From the sequence record OZ035795.1: a stretch of 64,000 bases of DNA. One strand, 5' to 3'. Positions 29,652 through 55,301 of this stretch are shown here, piece by piece. The notes beneath the pieces were generated by a model, which was not told the origin of the DNA, ran no database searches, and saw only the letters and a list, made by a program, of their open reading frames with translations. Numbering within the stretch: the stretch's first letter is position 1; every line of letters starts with the position of its first letter. The position numbers were made by a program, and so were the translations under genes. The DNA is from Krischvirus LF73P4.

Positions 29652-29661
29652 GGTGATTGCT

Positions 29662-30150
29662 ATGAAATGGGAATTGGGTAAGATGTACACTCTTGATGGT
29701 GATGAGAAGAAAGCAGAATTTACCAAATCTGAACTGTCAATCAACCGTCAAGTTGCTGAGTTTCTTGATGGACGTCCTTTTACAGTCGAGGTTATGAGTA
29801 ATGAGGGTCATGTTCTTGAAATCTCGTTAAGTGATGGTAAATGTATTTCTGTTCGAGACACTCCAATTGGTGCGCACGGTGCATGGTTTTGGGCTGGTGA
29901 ACGTCGATTCTTTAAAGAAGTTAAAGAACCAGATCTAACTTTAGAACGTCTGGGTCTGCTTATGGAAGCCTACGACATTCAGTTAATCGATAAGACGGGG
30001 TTACAACATAGTATTGCCAAAATTACTACCCTAGAAGGTATTAAGAGCGTTCTAAATGGTATGCCTAGCCGGATTGGTGCTATCCGCGAATACAAGCAAA
30101 CGCGAGACCGTATGATCCAATTAGAATCACGTATCAAAAATGAGAGATAA
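29662..30150 (+). CDS. MKWE-family paralogue 1
   Basis: ATG 29662; MKWELGKMYT...RPFTVEV...GERRFFKEVKE module + helical tail. Confidence 0.55.
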   Translation: MKWELGKMYTLDGDEKKAEFTKSELSINRQVAEFLDGRPFTVEVMSNEGHVLEISLSDGKCISVRDTPIGAHGAWFWAGERRFFKEVKEPDLTLERLGLLMEAYDIQLIDKTGLQHSIAKITTLEGIKSVLNGMPSRIGAIREYKQTRDRMIQLESRIKNER

Positions 30151-30154
30151 TATT

Positions 30155-30640
30155 ATGAAATGGGAAGAAGGTAAGACCTATGCGTTGGTTGGCGAATACG
30201 AAAAGCGTATTTTGCGTGATTGTTGGAGTTACGAACAAAGACCTAATATTGATGGTATGTTTACATATCTAGATAAACCATTTACTGTCGCTACGGTAGA
30301 CCGTTGGGGTAATGTGCGTTCAATCTATAATCACGAAGGGGATTATATTAGTTCTATCGATATTGGTGATAATATATGGTTTTCCGATGGTGACCGAGCG
30401 TGCTTCAAAGAAGTTTTATTACCTGGTCATGAATATGATCTAATAGACCTTCTCAAATTGGCGATGGATAATTATAAAATCCGCTTTGAATGCAAATCAC
30501 ATGCGGCTATCGGTGCTAACGCCTTGCGTCATATCTCCAGTTTTGAAGAGTTGAAAGATTTTCTTGACAAAATGCCGGAAAGGGTGCAAGCTATACAGGA
30601 AGCAGAGAAAGCATTAAACGAACTTGATAAAATCGGTTAA
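30155..30640 (+). CDS. MKWE-family paralogue 2
   Basis: MKWEEGKTYA...KPFTVATV...GDRACFKEVLL module + helical tail. Confidence 0.55.
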   Translation: MKWEEGKTYALVGEYEKRILRDCWSYEQRPNIDGMFTYLDKPFTVATVDRWGNVRSIYNHEGDYISSIDIGDNIWFSDGDRACFKEVLLPGHEYDLIDLLKLAMDNYKIRFECKSHAAIGANALRHISSFEELKDFLDKMPERVQAIQEAEKALNELDKIG

Positions 30641-30652
30641 GGGGAATATATT

Positions 30653-31477
30653 ATGAAATGGGAAATTGGTAAAACTTACACTTGGAAAGATGAAAACGCT
30701 AAAACTGAGTTTATTACTAACGGAGAAGGTGTTCTTTCTCCACTTAACAGCGATATTAGTGCATCTATTGGTGACAAGCCATTTACCATCATCGAGATCG
30801 ATGGCAACGGTTGGATTAATGCAATAGAGCTAGACGGTGTTTATCATACGGCGAAAACTGCTACAGGAAAAGACATTTGGACTGCAACATATTTCTTTAG
30901 TCCATTCGATAGAAAATTCTTTCGTGAAGTTGAAGAAGTTCCCCAGAAATGGGAAGTTGGTAAAACTTATACTTGGAAAGATGTGAATGCTATGACAGAC
31001 TTCTGCCATTATGCTGAAAACGTATCTAACCTTAATTATGTTATTGCACGAGCAATAAATTATAGACCTTTTACTGTTAAAAATGTTAGTCCATGTGGGC
31101 AAATTGATGTAATTGAAATTGATGGTAAAGACCATACTCTAATGAGCGCAACCGAAGATAGAGACCATAAAGGAACTAGCTGGTTTATTGATTCTGATAG
31201 AAAATTCTTTCGTGAAGTAGAAGAATTGGAAGTTATAACCACTGATTCTAAAATCGTTGGACAGTTGAAACGTCTGTTTAGTAGTCGTTACGGCCTGACA
31301 ATGGTTAAATTTGGCGAAGCAAATGAAGGTAAAACCTTTGAACGTTTCGATGATTTCATCGCAGCACTTGACAAGATGGACGAAATAATGCAAGATCGCC
31401 AGAAGATTAAAGACCTTCAAGAAGACATTAAACGTCGTGAAGTTGAATTTTTGATTGGTAAAGAGCGAGGATGGTAA
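30653..31477 (+). CDS. MKWE-family paralogue 3 (internal duplication, two modules)
   Basis: MKWEIGKTYTWKD...FDRKFFREVEEV then QKWEVGKTYTWKD...SDRKFFREVEELE; near-identical DNA repeats at 30657/30948 and 30908/31198. Confidence 0.6.
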   Translation: MKWEIGKTYTWKDENAKTEFITNGEGVLSPLNSDISASIGDKPFTIIEIDGNGWINAIELDGVYHTAKTATGKDIWTATYFFSPFDRKFFREVEEVPQKWEVGKTYTWKDVNAMTDFCHYAENVSNLNYVIARAINYRPFTVKNVSPCGQIDVIEIDGKDHTLMSATEDRDHKGTSWFIDSDRKFFREVEELEVITTDSKIVGQLKRLFSSRYGLTMVKFGEANEGKTFERFDDFIAALDKMDEIMQDRQKIKDLQEDIKRREVEFLIGKERGW

Positions 31478-31478
31478 T

Positions 31479-31958
31479 ATGTTTGTTGTTGGTATGACCT
31501 ATCAGTGGAAAAACGATCGAGCGCGGAAAGCCTTTGCAACCAGTGTTGCAAATGATGCAATAGCAGACTTTATCGGTGACCGTACATTTAAAGTTATCGC
31601 TTTTGAAAAAATTGCGTCAGATATCGAATATGTTTCTGCGATTGAAATTGATGGAAAAACATACACCTGTCGAGATGTTGATGATGTACGGGAATACGCG
31701 CACAACTGGTTTTTGCAATCAGAAGAACGTTATTTTAAAGTGGTGTCGTCAGAACTGACTACTGATGCAATGTTGGAACAATTTTTCAACAACTACGAAG
31801 TTTCTGTACGTCGCTATGGCGAAGAAGAAGTGTTTAAAATCGATGATTACAATCAGTTTAAACGAGTATTCGCCACTAAGTTGCAGCGTGACTTTGAACG
31901 TGACCAACGGATCAAGGAACTGGAAGAAGAATTGGAAAGATTAAAGGCTGAGAAATGA
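31479..31958 (+). CDS. MKWE-family paralogue 4 (divergent)
   Basis: MFVVGMTYQWKND...EERYFKVV module, C-terminal coiled coil RIKELEEELERLKAEK. Confidence 0.5.
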   Translation: MFVVGMTYQWKNDRARKAFATSVANDAIADFIGDRTFKVIAFEKIASDIEYVSAIEIDGKTYTCRDVDDVREYAHNWFLQSEERYFKVVSSELTTDAMLEQFFNNYEVSVRRYGEEEVFKIDDYNQFKRVFATKLQRDFERDQRIKELEEELERLKAEK

Positions 31959-32224
31959 TCGAGATATACGGTATACCGAAAGAGGCTTATCATTGTTATG
32001 GTTGTATTAGTGCAATGAAGCTACTGGATGATCTGGGTATTCCGTATACACTTAAACCAGTATTCAAGCAGGTCGGGGTTGACATTATTCCCGACCGTGA
32101 TATGATTGAAGAACTGGCGGGGAGGCTAAACTCAAAGAGCCTCCGGTTTGTATACCCCCAGATATTCATTGACAACGAGCACATTGGAGGCTATAAAGAA
32201 CTGAGGGCGATTTATGATTATTGA
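31955..32224 (+). CDS. nrdH: glutaredoxin-like protein (NrdH-like)
   Basis: 89 aa; CYGC active site, PQIFIDNEHIGGYKEL glutaredoxin-type C-terminus; assignment to nrdH is tentative. Confidence 0.55.
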   Translation: MIEIYGIPKEAYHCYGCISAMKLLDDLGIPYTLKPVFKQVGVDIIPDRDMIEELAGRLNSKSLRFVYPQIFIDNEHIGGYKELRAIYDY

Positions 32225-32372
32225 GAATTTAGTTTCGGTGTTCATTATTGCTTTATTTGCTATAATGGCTTTACCGTTGAAGAAGTGTAAACACTGTAAC
32301 GGAACAGGATTGCGTGGTGATGGGTGTTGCGCTCATTGTCACGGATCTGGTAAAGTAAGTATCATTAAGTAA
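32214..32372 (+). CDS. small membrane/zinc-ribbon protein (52 aa)
   Basis: N-terminal TM helix then CKHCNGTG...CCAHCHGSG (DnaJ-like CxxCxGxG repeats); below track cut-off. Confidence 0.35.
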   Translation: MIIENLVSVFIIALFAIMALPLKKCKHCNGTGLRGDGCCAHCHGSGKVSIIK

Positions 32373-32393
32373 TTCTTGAGTGAGGAATATATT

Positions 32394-32681
32394 ATGTTAG
32401 TACACAATGCAATCGCACACATGGTTTATTCTCGATTTGGGCGCATGGAAGAAATCAATATTACCGATGCAGATTTAGATCTGATGCAAGTCGAAGGCCA
32501 GACATATCTGAAAAATAACGGCGTGAATATCGGTAAAGCGCGTGTGCGTGAATTGTTGGTTGAATATATTCTCTCTGAATTTGGCATTAGTGCTTTCGGT
32601 GTGAAAGAGATTGCACCTAAGCGCGAAATTTCTGATAAAATGATCAAGAAATGCCAGAAAGCACGACGTAAGGGTTTCTAA
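32394..32681 (+). CDS. hypothetical protein
   Basis: 95 aa from ATG after GAGGAATATATT module. Confidence 0.45.
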   Translation: MLVHNAIAHMVYSRFGRMEEINITDADLDLMQVEGQTYLKNNGVNIGKARVRELLVEYILSEFGISAFGVKEIAPKREISDKMIKKCQKARRKGF

Positions 32682-34150
32682 TGAAGATTGAAACATTAAT
32701 CGCATTGCCAGCGGCGGGGAAAACTGATGCTATACTTTCCCACGTCCTAGAGACAAAAGAAAAAGCGGTTATTGCTTCGCCATCTCGTGTTTTAAGTGAA
32801 CAATCTTACAATAAGTTTAAAAGAATGGGCGGTCGTGCTGTCTTGATTGATAGCACCAGACTAAGAAGCCTTAAGACAGTGCAAGCGTCGATAATGCAAT
32901 CAGTTAAAGACGGTGCTGATGTGATATTCATTACACATACAGCGTTATCTAATATGGAACGTTCAAAAATGTTTGGTGATTATGCTCTTTACATTGATGA
33001 AGTTCCTCAACTGGTTGAATTTAATGAGTATCCGTTTAAGTCTAATCTTGAACTTATCACGAAGCATTGCGAACCAATCGCCGACGAATCGGAATGCCTA
33101 CAGAACTTAGTTCTAAAAGACTCTGAGAAGGCCGCTATCAAAGAAAAGATAGAAAGTGCAAAGGATGGTACTGATATGATCGATTCTTCTCTTAGAGGGC
33201 TTTATGAGGCGTTATTAGAGAAGAAAATCAACGTTATGGTAAAACATAACGAAGGACACCGGAAGAATGGGTCGAAAATTGTTTTCTTGAACGATAACAA
33301 ACACGGTACGTGGGGAGACTTTAAAAAAGTTACGATAGCATGTGCAAATCTCTTTGATACATATAGTGGGAAGTATCTACGATACTATGCAAATTGCGAT
33401 TTTGTTCCGAGTGCGCTAGAATCCAGACTATATTTCAAAGAGTATAAAAATACAGATAGAGTTAACATCATCCTTATGACGGACTCCGAACGATGGTCGC
33501 GTCACCAGTCAGAAACAAACAATACCTTTGAACGTCTTGTTGATATGGTTAAAAATGAATGTGGTGATGACTTCATTTATACCGTGAATCGGGACCGTGA
33601 AGCGTGCACAAATGGTATTGGTGAGCGGATACCTTACGGATCTTATGGTCTTAACTCTTACATTCATCATAAAAATGTTGCTGTGATGTTCAGCTTTAAC
33701 CCTCAACGATGGGAGATTGATATTTTAAAAGGTCTTGCTAATAGTTGTGATCTCCCGACAAACGAGTTTTTGAAAGCGCGTCATGTGTCTGATTATCTGG
33801 AACCAGCATTTCAATTATGTTTGCGTTGTAACCTGAGAGACAACGAGAGCAAGGAGAATGTTAATCTATATGTTCCTGATTGGGCGTTGGTGGATTATCT
33901 AAAAACGTTTCTACCTAATGCCAATGTAATAACAGACCGAATGATTCCGCTAGAATGTGGTGAGCGTAAAGGGAGAAAATCATTTAAAAAGATGTTCGAC
34001 TTTAACGAGCAAGAGAATGCAAGATTTAACGGATTTAAGTATCGCATGAAGAAAAAAGGAAAAACTCTTGATCCGTCTGACGGCGAATCTGTAGAGATGG
34101 TTAGAGTGTGGATAACTAAGCAAAGAAAGTATAATGGCAATGGGGAATAG
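32681..34150 (+). CDS. P-loop NTPase (helicase-like N-terminal domain) of unknown function
   Basis: 489 aa; Walker A ALPAAGKT at residues 9-16, PSRVLSEQ (motif Ia-like), Walker B LYIDEV; Cys-containing C-terminal half without recognised motif. Confidence 0.45.
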   Translation: MKIETLIALPAAGKTDAILSHVLETKEKAVIASPSRVLSEQSYNKFKRMGGRAVLIDSTRLRSLKTVQASIMQSVKDGADVIFITHTALSNMERSKMFGDYALYIDEVPQLVEFNEYPFKSNLELITKHCEPIADESECLQNLVLKDSEKAAIKEKIESAKDGTDMIDSSLRGLYEALLEKKINVMVKHNEGHRKNGSKIVFLNDNKHGTWGDFKKVTIACANLFDTYSGKYLRYYANCDFVPSALESRLYFKEYKNTDRVNIILMTDSERWSRHQSETNNTFERLVDMVKNECGDDFIYTVNRDREACTNGIGERIPYGSYGLNSYIHHKNVAVMFSFNPQRWEIDILKGLANSCDLPTNEFLKARHVSDYLEPAFQLCLRCNLRDNESKENVNLYVPDWALVDYLKTFLPNANVITDRMIPLECGERKGRKSFKKMFDFNEQENARFNGFKYRMKKKGKTLDPSDGESVEMVRVWITKQRKYNGNGE

Positions 34151-34190
34151 CCCGAAAGGGTTATTTCCTAAATAATAGCGAGGGTGCGAA

Positions 34191-34724
34191 GTGTCTGATT
34201 ATGTAAACAATAAAGAGCTTTACGAAGAAATTTGCCGTTGGAAACAACGAATTGCAGCAGAAGGTCGGCAAGTGCCAATGAGCGATCAAATCGGCCTGGC
34301 AATTATGCAAATCTCTAAAAATCTATCACGGCGTTTTAACTTTTCTGGCTATAGTCAAACATGGCGCGAAGAAATGATCGACGATGGAATCGAAGCGGCG
34401 GTCAAGGGTTTGATTAATTTTGACGAGACAAAGTATAAAAATCCTCATGCTTACATCACGCAAGCGTGCTTTAATGCTTTTGTACAGCGCATTAAAAAAG
34501 AGAGAACAGCGACAGCCGCAAAATACAAATATTTTGTGCATCATGTATATGACGAACGCGACGCTGATATGTGCCAGATTGCTGATGAGGCATTCATACA
34601 GGACATTTACGATAAAATCAACAACTACGAGGAATCGGTCAATAAACCGAAAGCGCCAAAGGTTGAAGATGTATTGACCGAGGAATTGCCTAGCTTGGAC
34701 CAATTTTATGAGATTGAAAATTAA
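34191..34724 (+). CDS. 55: late sigma factor gp55
   Basis: GTG start; YVNNKEL, [21 protein letters not shown], [28 protein letters not shown] nearly identical to T4 gp55. Confidence 0.9.
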
Positions 34725-53910: not shown

Positions 53911-55301
53911 TGAGCAGAGTATTAACTTTCGATATGTTAACAGACGGGCAAAAACATGCTTTTGATGTTCTAATGAAACGCATTGAACAAAAGAAGCATA
54001 CAACTGTCCGTGGTGCGGCGGGTACTGGTAAAACCGCAATGATGAAATTCATTGTTCAGGAAATGGTCCGCCGTGGTGTAACTGGTGTGGTTTTGGCAAC
54101 GCCTACCCACCAGGCTAAAAAAGTTTTGAGTAAAGCGGTAGGTCGTCAAGCATTTACTTTACATGCACTACTGCGACTAAACCCGACCAACTATGAAGAT
54201 ACTCAAGTATTTGAGCAAAAAGATACTCCTAAGCTAGATGATGTTCAGATCATCATTGTTGATGAAGCGAGTATGGTCGATAAGAAACTATTTGATATTC
54301 TCATGAAGAGTATCAACGGTCGAATTGTTGTTATTGCAGTTGGCGATCCGCACCAGTTACGACCAGTTGATCCGAGCGGTGCAACGTCGATCTCTCCTTT
54401 CTTCACGGATGAAAATTTTCAAAACGTGGAGTTGACAGAAATTAAACGATCTAATGCACCGATCATTGATGTGGCGACCGCTGTCCGTAATGGTAAATGG
54501 GTATTCGAAAAGCAGTGCGGCAACGAGGGTGTATTCCATAGCTCAACTCTGCCGGAGTTTATGAAGCATTATTTCGAAACCGTTAAAACGCCGGAAGACC
54601 TGCTAGAAAACCGTATTCTGGCCTACACTAACAAGAGCGTCGAAAAACTCAATGAAATTGTGCGTAAGCGCGTTTATAACACCGATGAACCAGTGATTGT
54701 AGATGAAATTCTGGTTACTCAGGAACCATTGATCGAATATCTGCGAGATGAACGCGGGAAGAAGATTCCCAATGTTATTTTTAACAATGGTGAGATGATC
54801 CGAGTTAAAGAGGTCATCCCGCGCGAATTTACATTACGTTGCACGGGGGTAGATCCGCAACCAGTTTTAGGCTATACTCTGAAAGTGGAAAGCGTCGATG
54901 ATGACGAAGACAAAGAAATCCTAAATCAGAAAGTCGGTTTAGATGCAGTCGGAATCACTACAGATAAACCAGATTTAGTAGAAATCAACATTCTGACAGA
55001 ACAACGTCAGAAGAACATTTTCTCTATCTATCTGAATACGGTCGCCGGACAATATCGCGAAATGAAGAAAGAGAATCCAAAATTTAAACCAGATTGGGAT
55101 TCCTTCTGGACGATGAAGCGTATGTTCTTGAATGTAAAAGCATTACCAGCTTGCACCATTCATAAGTCACAAGGGATCAGCGTAGACCGCGTGTTCCTGT
55201 ATACTCCTTGCATGTGTACAGACAATGTTGACTTTGAATTGGCAATGCAGTTATTATATGTGGGTGTTACCCGTGCGCGGTATCGAGTAGACTATATTTG
55301 A
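53910..55301 (+). CDS. dda: SF1 DNA helicase Dda
   Basis: 463 aa; Walker A GAAGTGKT, Walker B IIVDEASM, collinear with T4 Dda (KRSNAPIIDVATxVRNGKW, LLYVGVTR). Confidence 0.95.
   Translation: MSRVLTFDMLTDGQKHAFDVLMKRIEQKKHTTVRGAAGTGKTAMMKFIVQEMVRRGVTGVVLATPTHQAKKVLSKAVGRQAFTLHALLRLNPTNYEDTQVFEQKDTPKLDDVQIIIVDEASMVDKKLFDILMKSINGRIVVIAVGDPHQLRPVDPSGATSISPFFTDENFQNVELTEIKRSNAPIIDVATAVRNGKWVFEKQCGNEGVFHSSTLPEFMKHYFETVKTPEDLLENRILAYTNKSVEKLNEIVRKRVYNTDEPVIVDEILVTQEPLIEYLRDERGKKIPNVIFNNGEMIRVKEVIPREFTLRCTGVDPQPVLGYTLKVESVDDDEDKEILNQKVGLDAVGITTDKPDLVEINILTEQRQKNIFSIYLNTVAGQYREMKKENPKFKPDWDSFWTMKRMFLNVKALPACTIHKSQGISVDRVFLYTPCMCTDNVDFELAMQLLYVGVTRARYRVDYI

Follow-up and report, generated by a model that had tools for sequence, protein, structure and literature searches.

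A helicase-like ATPase of XPD/DinG-like architecture encoded between the 55.2 ortholog and gene 55 of Krischvirus LF73P4

Introduction

In XPD and classical DinG helicases, a 4Fe-4S domain is held by four cysteines located between motifs Ia and II, and in established XPD structures the Arch domain interrupts motor domain 1 at a point between motifs II and III. The same set of domains, the Arch included, has been described in a review of DinG proteins, according to which some accepted DinG-like subgroups have no 4Fe-4S domain (PMC11981726). DinG-like proteins that lack the iron-sulfur (Fe-S) domain and have a reduced Arch are already known, namely CasDinG, the short-type sDinG and Hna (PMC11981726; PMC13381803). 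Among them, sDinG was defined by two motor domains and a compact Arch without Fe-S or other domains; its ATP- and DNA-binding residues are degenerate and its distribution is cyanobacterial (PMC11981726, Cheng 2025). In this study, we analyzed a stretch of 64,000 nucleotides from Krischvirus LF73P4 (OZ035795.1; hereafter the window, meaning the whole stretch) and, within it, an open reading frame (ORF) of 489 amino acids at positions 32681-34150 on the plus strand, for which we use the shorthand ORF489. A first-pass annotation, made from the sequence of the window, had described this ORF as an orphan P-loop ATPase.

We found that ORF489 is not categorically new: structurally it is a superfamily 2 (SF2) helicase of the XPD/DinG kind, which lacks the Fe-S cluster and carries a compact, probably Arch-like insertion, a form known from CasDinG, sDinG and Hna. 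It belongs, however, to a distinct, large and uncharacterized sequence family that has its own signature (HGLN, NP, YQxxxRxxxR and VPD), is distributed over phages and mobile elements, and includes relatives that carry a fused primase-like domain. The ORF489 protein was described in no paper and covered in full by no curated family that we found, and the family has no solved structure. The matching regions of the listed phage records were annotated as 'hypothetical protein' or not at all, with two exceptions, a 'putative helicase' in phage W115 and one record with a 'DNA primase' feature under the match.

Domain architecture and conserved residues

The coding sequence (32681..34150; all features described here lie on the plus strand) comprises 489 codons and a stop, begins with ATG and is far longer than expected by chance; its coordinates and length had been given exactly in the first-pass annotation. 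That annotation had read the product as a P-loop ATPase with a helicase-like N-terminus, quoting ALPAAGKT (residues 8-15; Walker A, at the extreme N-terminus), PSRVLSEQ (residues 34-41; similar to motif Ia) and LYIDEV (residues 103-108; Walker B). All three segments were found as quoted, and the reading agrees with a Pfam DEAD match at residues 11-130 (27.3 bits; cut-off 26) and with the conservation of motifs I, Ia and II. It had also reported no second RecA-like domain and no known signature in the C-terminal 350 residues, and on both points our analysis led to a different result: in the AlphaFold2 model, residues ~256-420 form a second RecA-like domain, which bears an invariant, motif-VI-like Q378-x3-R382-x3-R386 array, and the region in between is an insertion at the position of the Arch. 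The model was computed with ColabFold from an alignment of 30 sequences of the T4-like clade (mean predicted local distance difference test (pLDDT), 87.7; predicted template modeling score, 0.76). Broader alignments contained 81 and 147 sequences, with identity to ORF489 down to ~18%.

The first part of RecA-like motor domain 1 (residues 1-110; 32681..33010) contains motif I/Walker A, PAAGKT (residues 10-15; nucleotides 32708-32725), motif Ia, SPSRVLSEQS (residues 33-42; 32777-32806), a FITH strand (residues 83-86) and motif II/Walker B, LYIDEVP (residues 103-109; 32987-33007). Between motif II and a motif-III-like strand there is an insertion of ~105 residues (residues 111-215; 33011..33325, boundaries approximate), which was modeled as a beta strand, two long helices (147-162 and 166-179) and a beta hairpin (186-205). 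Motor domain 1 then resumes with a return segment (residues 216-255; 33326..33445) that carries the motif-III-like strand KVTIACAN, in which T218 and N223 were nearly invariant in the T4-like clade. RecA-like motor domain 2 (residues ~256-420; 33446..33940) is marked by WS(R/K) (S273), YTxN (N303), (H/Y)GLN (G323 and N325; 33641-33655), NP (N340), the motif-VI-like FQLCLRCNLR (Q378, R382 and R386; 33809-33838) and VPD (residues 398-400; 33872-33880). The C-terminal tail (residues 421-489; 33941..34147) is particular to the short form of T4-like phages. It consists of a basic linker of low confidence (pLDDT <50 at residues 426-431) followed by helices 443-458 and 468-484, in which E445 and W477 were invariant in the 30-sequence alignment.

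In the same alignment, the invariant positions of the N-terminal half were P10, G13, K14 and T15 in motif I; S33, L38 and S42 in motif Ia; F83 and T85; and D106, E107 and P109 in motif II. In the C-terminal half they were S273, N303, G323, N325, N340, P375, F377, Q378, L379, C380, R382, R386, V398, P399 and D400. Eight of these residues (K14, D106, E107, G323, N325, Q378, R382 and R386) were also invariant in both the 81- and the 147-sequence alignments. The block F377-R386 reads as helicase motif VI in the aligned sequences. The protein thus shows the arrangement of an SF2 helicase, with Walker A and Walker B (DEVP, residues 106-109) in the N-terminal RecA-like domain and an arginine-containing motif VI in the second one. 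Since these eight residues remained invariant down to ~18% identity, which argues that catalysis is under selection, ORF489 is probably an active ATPase.

The first-pass annotation had also remarked on a Cys-containing C-terminal region. Cysteines are indeed present there, ORF489 having ten in total (residues 130, 139, 221, 239, 294, 309, 356, 380, 383 and 426); a conserved metal site, on the other hand, was not found. Only C130 and C380 were invariant in the T4-like clade, and no cysteine was conserved family-wide in the 81- and 147-sequence alignments. Furthermore, the interval from motif Ia, which ends at residue 42, to motif II, which begins at residue 103, spans only ~60 residues. Together, this short interval and the lack of a conserved cysteine indicate that ORF489 has no Fe-S cluster.

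Comparison with XPD/DinG helicases and other described systems

The best structural matches of the ORF489 model were DNA helicases of the XPD/DinG kind (match score and number of aligned residues in brackets): DinG of Finegoldia magna (9kqh; 18.6, 356), XPD of S. acidocaldarius (3crv; 18.2, 326), the type IV CRISPR DinG, CasDinG (8s35_M; 17.8, 337), yeast Rad3 (5fmf_Y; 17.4, 339), XPD4 (2vl7; 17.3, 318) and E. coli DinG (6fwr; 14.6, 366). The extra 70-110 aligned residues of these matches, taken with the position of the ORF489 insertion between motifs II and III, correspond to the place of the Arch domain in XPD and DinG. By this position in motor domain 1, we infer that the insertion at residues 111-215 is 'Arch-like'.

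The model of ORF489 has two motor domains like XPD, Rad3 and DinG, with a putatively Arch-like insertion in domain 1 between motifs II and III. In contrast with these proteins, which possess the 4Fe-4S domain, ORF489 has neither this domain nor conserved cysteines. In addition, XPD and DinG chains comprise 551-738 residues, whereas ORF489 has 489 with a compact insertion; their motif II is DEAH, that of ORF489 is DEVP; and ORF489 falls outside their sequence-profile membership as judged by Pfam and hhalign. According to the model, ORF489 is built like an Fe-S-less motor of the XPD/DinG type, yet it belongs to a separate sequence family. The three-part architecture of sDinG is matched by the model as well, to which ORF489 adds a tail of ~70 residues. 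However, the ATP site of sDinG is degenerate, whereas the ATP-site residues are invariant in the ORF489 family, and sDinG is cyanobacterial, whereas the ORF489 family occurs in phages and proteobacterial mobile elements.

Unlike CasDinG (8s35_M, 8e2w) and Hna (9yhn), ORF489 has no CRISPR or defense context and is phage-encoded and syntenic in a T4-type genome. Hna carries a C-terminal PD-(D/E)XK nuclease, whereas ORF489 has no nuclease or exonuclease domain. We therefore rejected the possibility that ORF489 is a defense protein of the Hna type, as it lacks the nuclease domain and matched no PADLOC defense model beyond a chance-level hit; kinship with Hna was also unsupported by one of the long relatives described below, which had no sequence match to the Hna chain.

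Among the helicases of T4, Dda (SF1B), UvsW (SF2) and gp41 (SF4) are phage-encoded DNA motors, as ORF489 probably is, and they act in T4-type replication and recombination. Dda translocates 5'-to-3', as do XPD and DinG. By sequence and position, ORF489 is not orthologous to T4 Dda or UvsW. The role of a Dda substitute was rejected, because the same window encodes a full-length Dda ortholog (53922-55298, plus strand; 46% identity to T4 Dda by tblastn) and because Dda and an ORF489 homolog co-occur in Cronus, phiP4-3 and Lw1.

Distribution and gene context in T4-like phages

The window was 99.1-99.5% identical at the DNA level to its 20 best-matching records, all of which were RB49-type phages (Krischvirus; T4-like phages of the RB49/JSE type). 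The ORF489 protein was 100% identical to EpJSE_00045 of phage JSE, a 'hypothetical protein', and 99.8% identical to its counterpart in RB49. The first-pass annotation had called the ORF an orphan, which it is not: full-length homologs were present in 243 phage records (tblastn), and a profile search covering 1.84 billion cluster representatives returned a family of 1,333 representatives at E<=1e-3, 766 of them at E<=1e-10. Identity was at least 97% within the Krischvirus group and 35-42% for T4-like phages of Aeromonas, Cronobacter, Enterobacter, Citrobacter, Klebsiella, Serratia, Proteus, Morganella and Erwinia and for RB16/Lw1, while metagenomic proteins spanned 74% to 31%. ORF489 matched PHROG 2467 ('unknown function') over its entire length (E=2.9e-175; residues 1-489 against profile positions 8-502 of 502). 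A Foldseek search against BFVD further revealed family members, none of them characterized, in phages that include Fusobacterium phage Fnu1 and the jumbo phages Atu_ph07 and phiRSL1.

Conservation of the gene and of its synteny extends over Krischvirus, Pseudotevenvirus, Tulanevirus, Roskildevirus and many T4-like phages of Aeromonas, Proteus, Cronobacter and Serratia. In our window, nrdH, the ortholog of T4 55.2 (32394..32681; 42% identity, E=7e-20), ORF489 and gene 55, which encodes the late sigma factor (34191..34724; 40 nucleotides 3' of ORF489), are all on one strand. The start codon of ORF489 shares bases with the stop codon of the 55.2 ortholog (TAATG, 32679-32683), an overlap that suggests co-transcription and translational coupling, and an AAGGG element resembling a Shine-Dalgarno sequence lies 6 nucleotides 5' of the ATG. 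Overlap with the stop codon of the preceding gene was observed in four of four genomes (JSE, RB16, Aeromonas phage 25 and Erwinia phage Cronus). Gene 55 follows the homolog directly in JSE, Aeromonas phage 25 and Cronus, and the homolog directly follows 55.2 in JSE and RB16. In Aeromonas phage 25, two other ORFs separate 55.2 from the ORF489 homolog, and no 55.2 is annotated in the examined stretch of the Cronus record.

No T4 counterpart had been recognized at this position in the first-pass annotation, which is consistent with our results: the order in T4 is 55.2, 55.1 and 55, and the slot of ORF489 is occupied by the unrelated gp55.1 of 87 amino acids. The comparison of presence and absence across T4-like genomes that it had proposed pointed in the same direction, as no Tequatrovirus was found among the 243 tblastn hits. 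The idea that T4 gp55.1 is a remnant of ORF489 was rejected (BLASTP E=1.6). It was also considered whether ORF489 might be limited to T4-like phages without glucosylated hydroxymethylcytosine DNA; this was rejected by Erwinia phage Cronus (Tevenvirinae), which has an ORF489 homolog and, a few genes away, an annotated DNA alpha-glucosyltransferase.

Long relatives with a primase-like domain in mobile elements

Two size classes were observed among the top 150 relatives, one of ~450-600 and one of ~760-850 amino acids. The long class (~800 amino acids, phrog_31024; for example P0043, P0190 from Bradyrhizobium, and P0221) is homologous to ORF489 throughout the helicase module, including the insertion (hhalign probability 100%, E=2.3e-48, residues 1-420), and shares the HGLN, NP, YQxxxRxxxR and VPD motifs. 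The homology stops at residue ~420 of ORF489. Beyond this point the long proteins have an extra C-terminal domain of ~350 residues with D-x-[DE], sxH and D motifs, whereas ORF489 has its basic helical tail of ~70 residues.

In this additional domain, 10 of 13 long-class members matched phrog_9765 (best E=4.8e-10), and matches to phrog_2135 and phrog_256 were also found; these PHROGs bear the names 'DNA primase' or 'DNA helicase', and the part of them that was matched is the N-terminal region. D579, R615 and D661 were invariant in it, position 581 was E or D, and H607 was present in 22 of 29 sequences. We take the pattern formed by D579/581, H607 and D661 to resemble the D-x-D/E, sxH and D motifs of archaeo-eukaryotic-type primases (AEP). 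The domain terminates in a four-helix bundle.

With regard to genomic context, the long class resides in integrative elements, whereas ORF489 is located in a lytic phage genome and not beside an integrase. One long-class gene lies directly 3' of a P4-type integrase gene and a gene for an AlpA-like HTH_17 protein, with defense-like cargo next to it. Relatives of ~810 amino acids are encoded next to tyrosine integrases in L004 (8168-12445), L005 (6023-10300) and L015 (46-4626); in L004 and L005 the order is integrase, small ORF(s), AlpA-like HTH_17, the helicase-primase-like gene and then defense-like cargo (PLDc_2, Mrr_cat). A further long-class gene is ~1 kb from a divergently transcribed tyrosine recombinase gene, one is near a resolvase, an AAA_25 protein and a transposase, another is 5 kb from an integrase, and the chromosomal copy of Bradyrhizobium adjoins an ATP-dependent DNA ligase gene. 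Together, the primase-like domain and the mobile-element contexts suggest that the module serves the replication of mobile DNA. Judging from these sequences, the relatives of ~810 amino acids are a possible new replication protein of integrative islands, in which the helicase precedes the primase.

Two side observations concern the distribution of the module. A 146-kb phage-like metagenomic contig (L010, 5610-9497) encodes a short-class homolog of 498 amino acids directly behind the genes for an N6/N4 DNA methyltransferase and for a protein with a CapR domain (PF21817), a gene context unlike that of T4-like phages. In the large Aeromonas phages PX29 (GU396103.1, 23660-24370) and phiAS5 (NC_014636.1, 119626-120336), the match to the long-class query P0075 was confined to its residues 221-468; these matches, which cover the second half of the helicase module, may represent truncated or split copies of the gene.

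Possible function and alternative explanations

We consider it reasonably probable that ORF489 works as an active DNA motor of the XPD/DinG-like kind and that its role in DNA metabolism is an accessory one, and would attach a much lower probability to any specific substrate. The two RecA-like domains would bind and hydrolyze ATP at their interface, using K14 (Walker A), D106 and E107 (Walker B), and Q378, R382 and R386 (motif VI). The protein would load on single-stranded DNA, presumably its substrate, and by analogy with XPD and DinG would most likely translocate in the 5'-to-3' direction, and this movement could unwind duplex DNA or DNA:RNA hybrids or displace proteins. ORF489 might thus act as a non-essential accessory helicase in phage replication, recombination or repair, beside the canonical T4-type helicases. 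A connection with replication is in line with the relatives on integrase-bearing elements, whose homologous helicase module (E=2.3e-48) is fused to a primase-like domain. Early expression is probable, because ORF489 is on the same strand as the ortholog of the early gene 55.2 and overlaps it. T4 55.2 encodes a DNA-binding inhibitor of E. coli topoisomerase I (Topo I) and has an mRNA that belongs to the early transcripts (PMC4396842). A functional link between ORF489 and gp55.2 via supercoiling or R-loops is conceivable.

Several points weigh against this reading. Pfam DEAD was marginal, covered the N-terminal part only and was detected at E<=0.1 in 15 of 30 aligned homologs. DEAD_2 (PF06733) and Helicase_C_2 (PF13307) were not detected in ORF489 at E<=1 or in any of the 30 homologs at E<=0.1, and no match to ORF489 was found in NCBIfam. 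Against the PDB, neither phmmer nor hmmsearch with the T4-like clade profile found anything, and the 81-sequence profile returned only generic SF2 N-termini (PriA, DEAD-box, Mfd, UvrB and NS3), with no XPD or DinG among the sequence matches listed. The alignment of the 81-sequence profile to E. coli DinG by hhalign was restricted to motifs I-Ia, with a probability of 10%. Moreover, many SF2 proteins translocate without unwinding, and the literature on RB49/Krischvirus in connection with DinG, XPD or helicase yielded no genetic or biochemical work. As for the timing of expression, sigma-70-like sites were not in excess (29 found; 24.8 +/- 5.9 in shuffled sequence).

A different and, in our opinion, rather unlikely role is that of a helicase for replication initiation or priming. 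ORF489 would then be the stand-alone helicase half of a mobile-element helicase-primase protein; in the phage it would start or restart synthesis by opening DNA or by loading at origins, R-loops or stalled forks, perhaps together with the phage primase gp61, and would hence be a replisome-assembly factor instead of a general accessory one. This explanation draws on the long relatives, which share the entire helicase module and whose C-terminal domain has primase/helicase PHROG matches and an AEP-like motif pattern. It also draws on their locations, since the position after a P4-type integrase and AlpA-like HTH_17 is the usual place of replication genes of satellites and islands, and other long-class genes are near integrases or a resolvase. 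The absence of the primase-like domain and of a neighboring integrase sets ORF489 apart from these proteins. The observations can also be joined into one broader scenario, which as a whole appears doubtful to us. In it, ORF489 and its more than 1,300 relatives would form an unrecognized Fe-S-less XPD-like lineage whose ancestral job was the replication of mobile elements; islands would have fused the module, in the unusual order of helicase then primase, to an AEP-like primase to obtain a one-protein initiator; and T4-like phages outside the T4 genus would have captured the helicase half and kept it beside gene 55. The captured half would provide a second route of replication start or restart, independent of gp41/gp59, and there might be an R-loop link to the co-translated Topo I inhibitor gp55.2.

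It appears unlikely that ORF489 is a protein-displacing translocase or counter-defense factor, which would strip host or defense proteins from phage DNA or mimic or titrate Hna or CasDinG. The PADLOC result mentioned above and the absence of a nuclease or other effector domain argue against such a role, and its stable synteny over several genera is more typical of a DNA-metabolism gene than of anti-defense cargo with fast turnover. We assign a similarly low likelihood to an RNA or RNA:DNA-hybrid helicase that remodels early mRNAs or removes the R-loops that build up under inhibition of Topo I by co-expressed gp55.2. R-loops are favored when Topo I activity is lost, and E. coli DinG is able to unwind them; in addition, the sole curated-profile hit of ORF489 is to the DEAD/DEAH box family of Pfam, and the gene appears to be translationally coupled to the 55.2 ortholog. 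However, that hit is marginal and limited to motifs I-II, the best structural matches are DNA helicases, and the link to 55.2 is not universal, given the two intervening ORFs in phage 25, the Cronus stretch without an annotated 55.2, and T4, which has 55.2 without ORF489. Finally, ORF489 could be a degenerate pseudo-helicase, binding nucleic acid or a protein partner but not hydrolyzing ATP, as proposed for cyanobacterial sDinG; this would fit the three-part architecture of two motors and a compact Arch-like insertion without an Fe-S domain (PMC11981726). We regard this as very improbable, as K14, D106, E107, Q378, R382 and R386 are invariant family-wide, unlike the description of sDinG.

If ORF489 is indeed an accessory DNA motor, the finding bears on a well-studied system. 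Phage DNA replication has its textbook model in T4, where gp41, Dda and UvsW are thought to be sufficient for the replisome. A fourth helicase of another architecture, kept in hundreds of T4-like phages whose hosts include Escherichia, Aeromonas, Proteus, Cronobacter and Erwinia, suggests that some task of DNA metabolism is handled differently outside the T4 genus. The Fe-S-less XPD/DinG-like architecture would also be extended from defense (CasDinG and Hna) to lytic phages and to putative helicase-primase fusions. Although an extra helicase in a T4-like phage may be of little surprise to the specialist, the picture of the family and the place of the gene beside 55.2 and 55 make it a reasonable target for experiments, and a tractable one, being a small single chain with a confident model in easily manipulated phages. 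The immediate gain is an annotation for genes that are now called 'hypothetical protein'.

Other features of the locus

No TATAAATA late promoter was seen by eye in 31900-32760 and 34080-34260, no pattern search having been made. The spacer between ORF489 and gene 55 (34151-34190, plus strand) contains a small CCC-GAAA-GGG hairpin followed by TTATTT, and a GAGGGTG element resembling a Shine-Dalgarno sequence precedes the GTG start of gene 55. The hairpin, which was not among the sites listed by the terminator scan, could be a weak terminator or an RNA-stability element.

Upstream, between nrdH and 55.2, there is an ORF of 52 amino acids (32214-32372, plus strand) with a hydrophobic N-terminal segment and two CxxCxGxG repeats (CKHCNGTG ... 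CAHCHGSG) similar to a DnaJ-type zinc finger. Further upstream, the interval from nrdG to nrdH (29653-31958, plus strand) is occupied by four paralogous ORFs in tandem, located at 29653-30150 (165 amino acids), 30140-30640 (166), 30653-31477 (274) and 31455-31958 (167). They begin with a motif of the (M)KWExGKTY type, end in a charged helical tail and are 'hypothetical' in JSE; the ORF of 274 amino acids is duplicated internally, with 'KWE(I/V)GKTYTWKD...FFREVEE' occurring twice.

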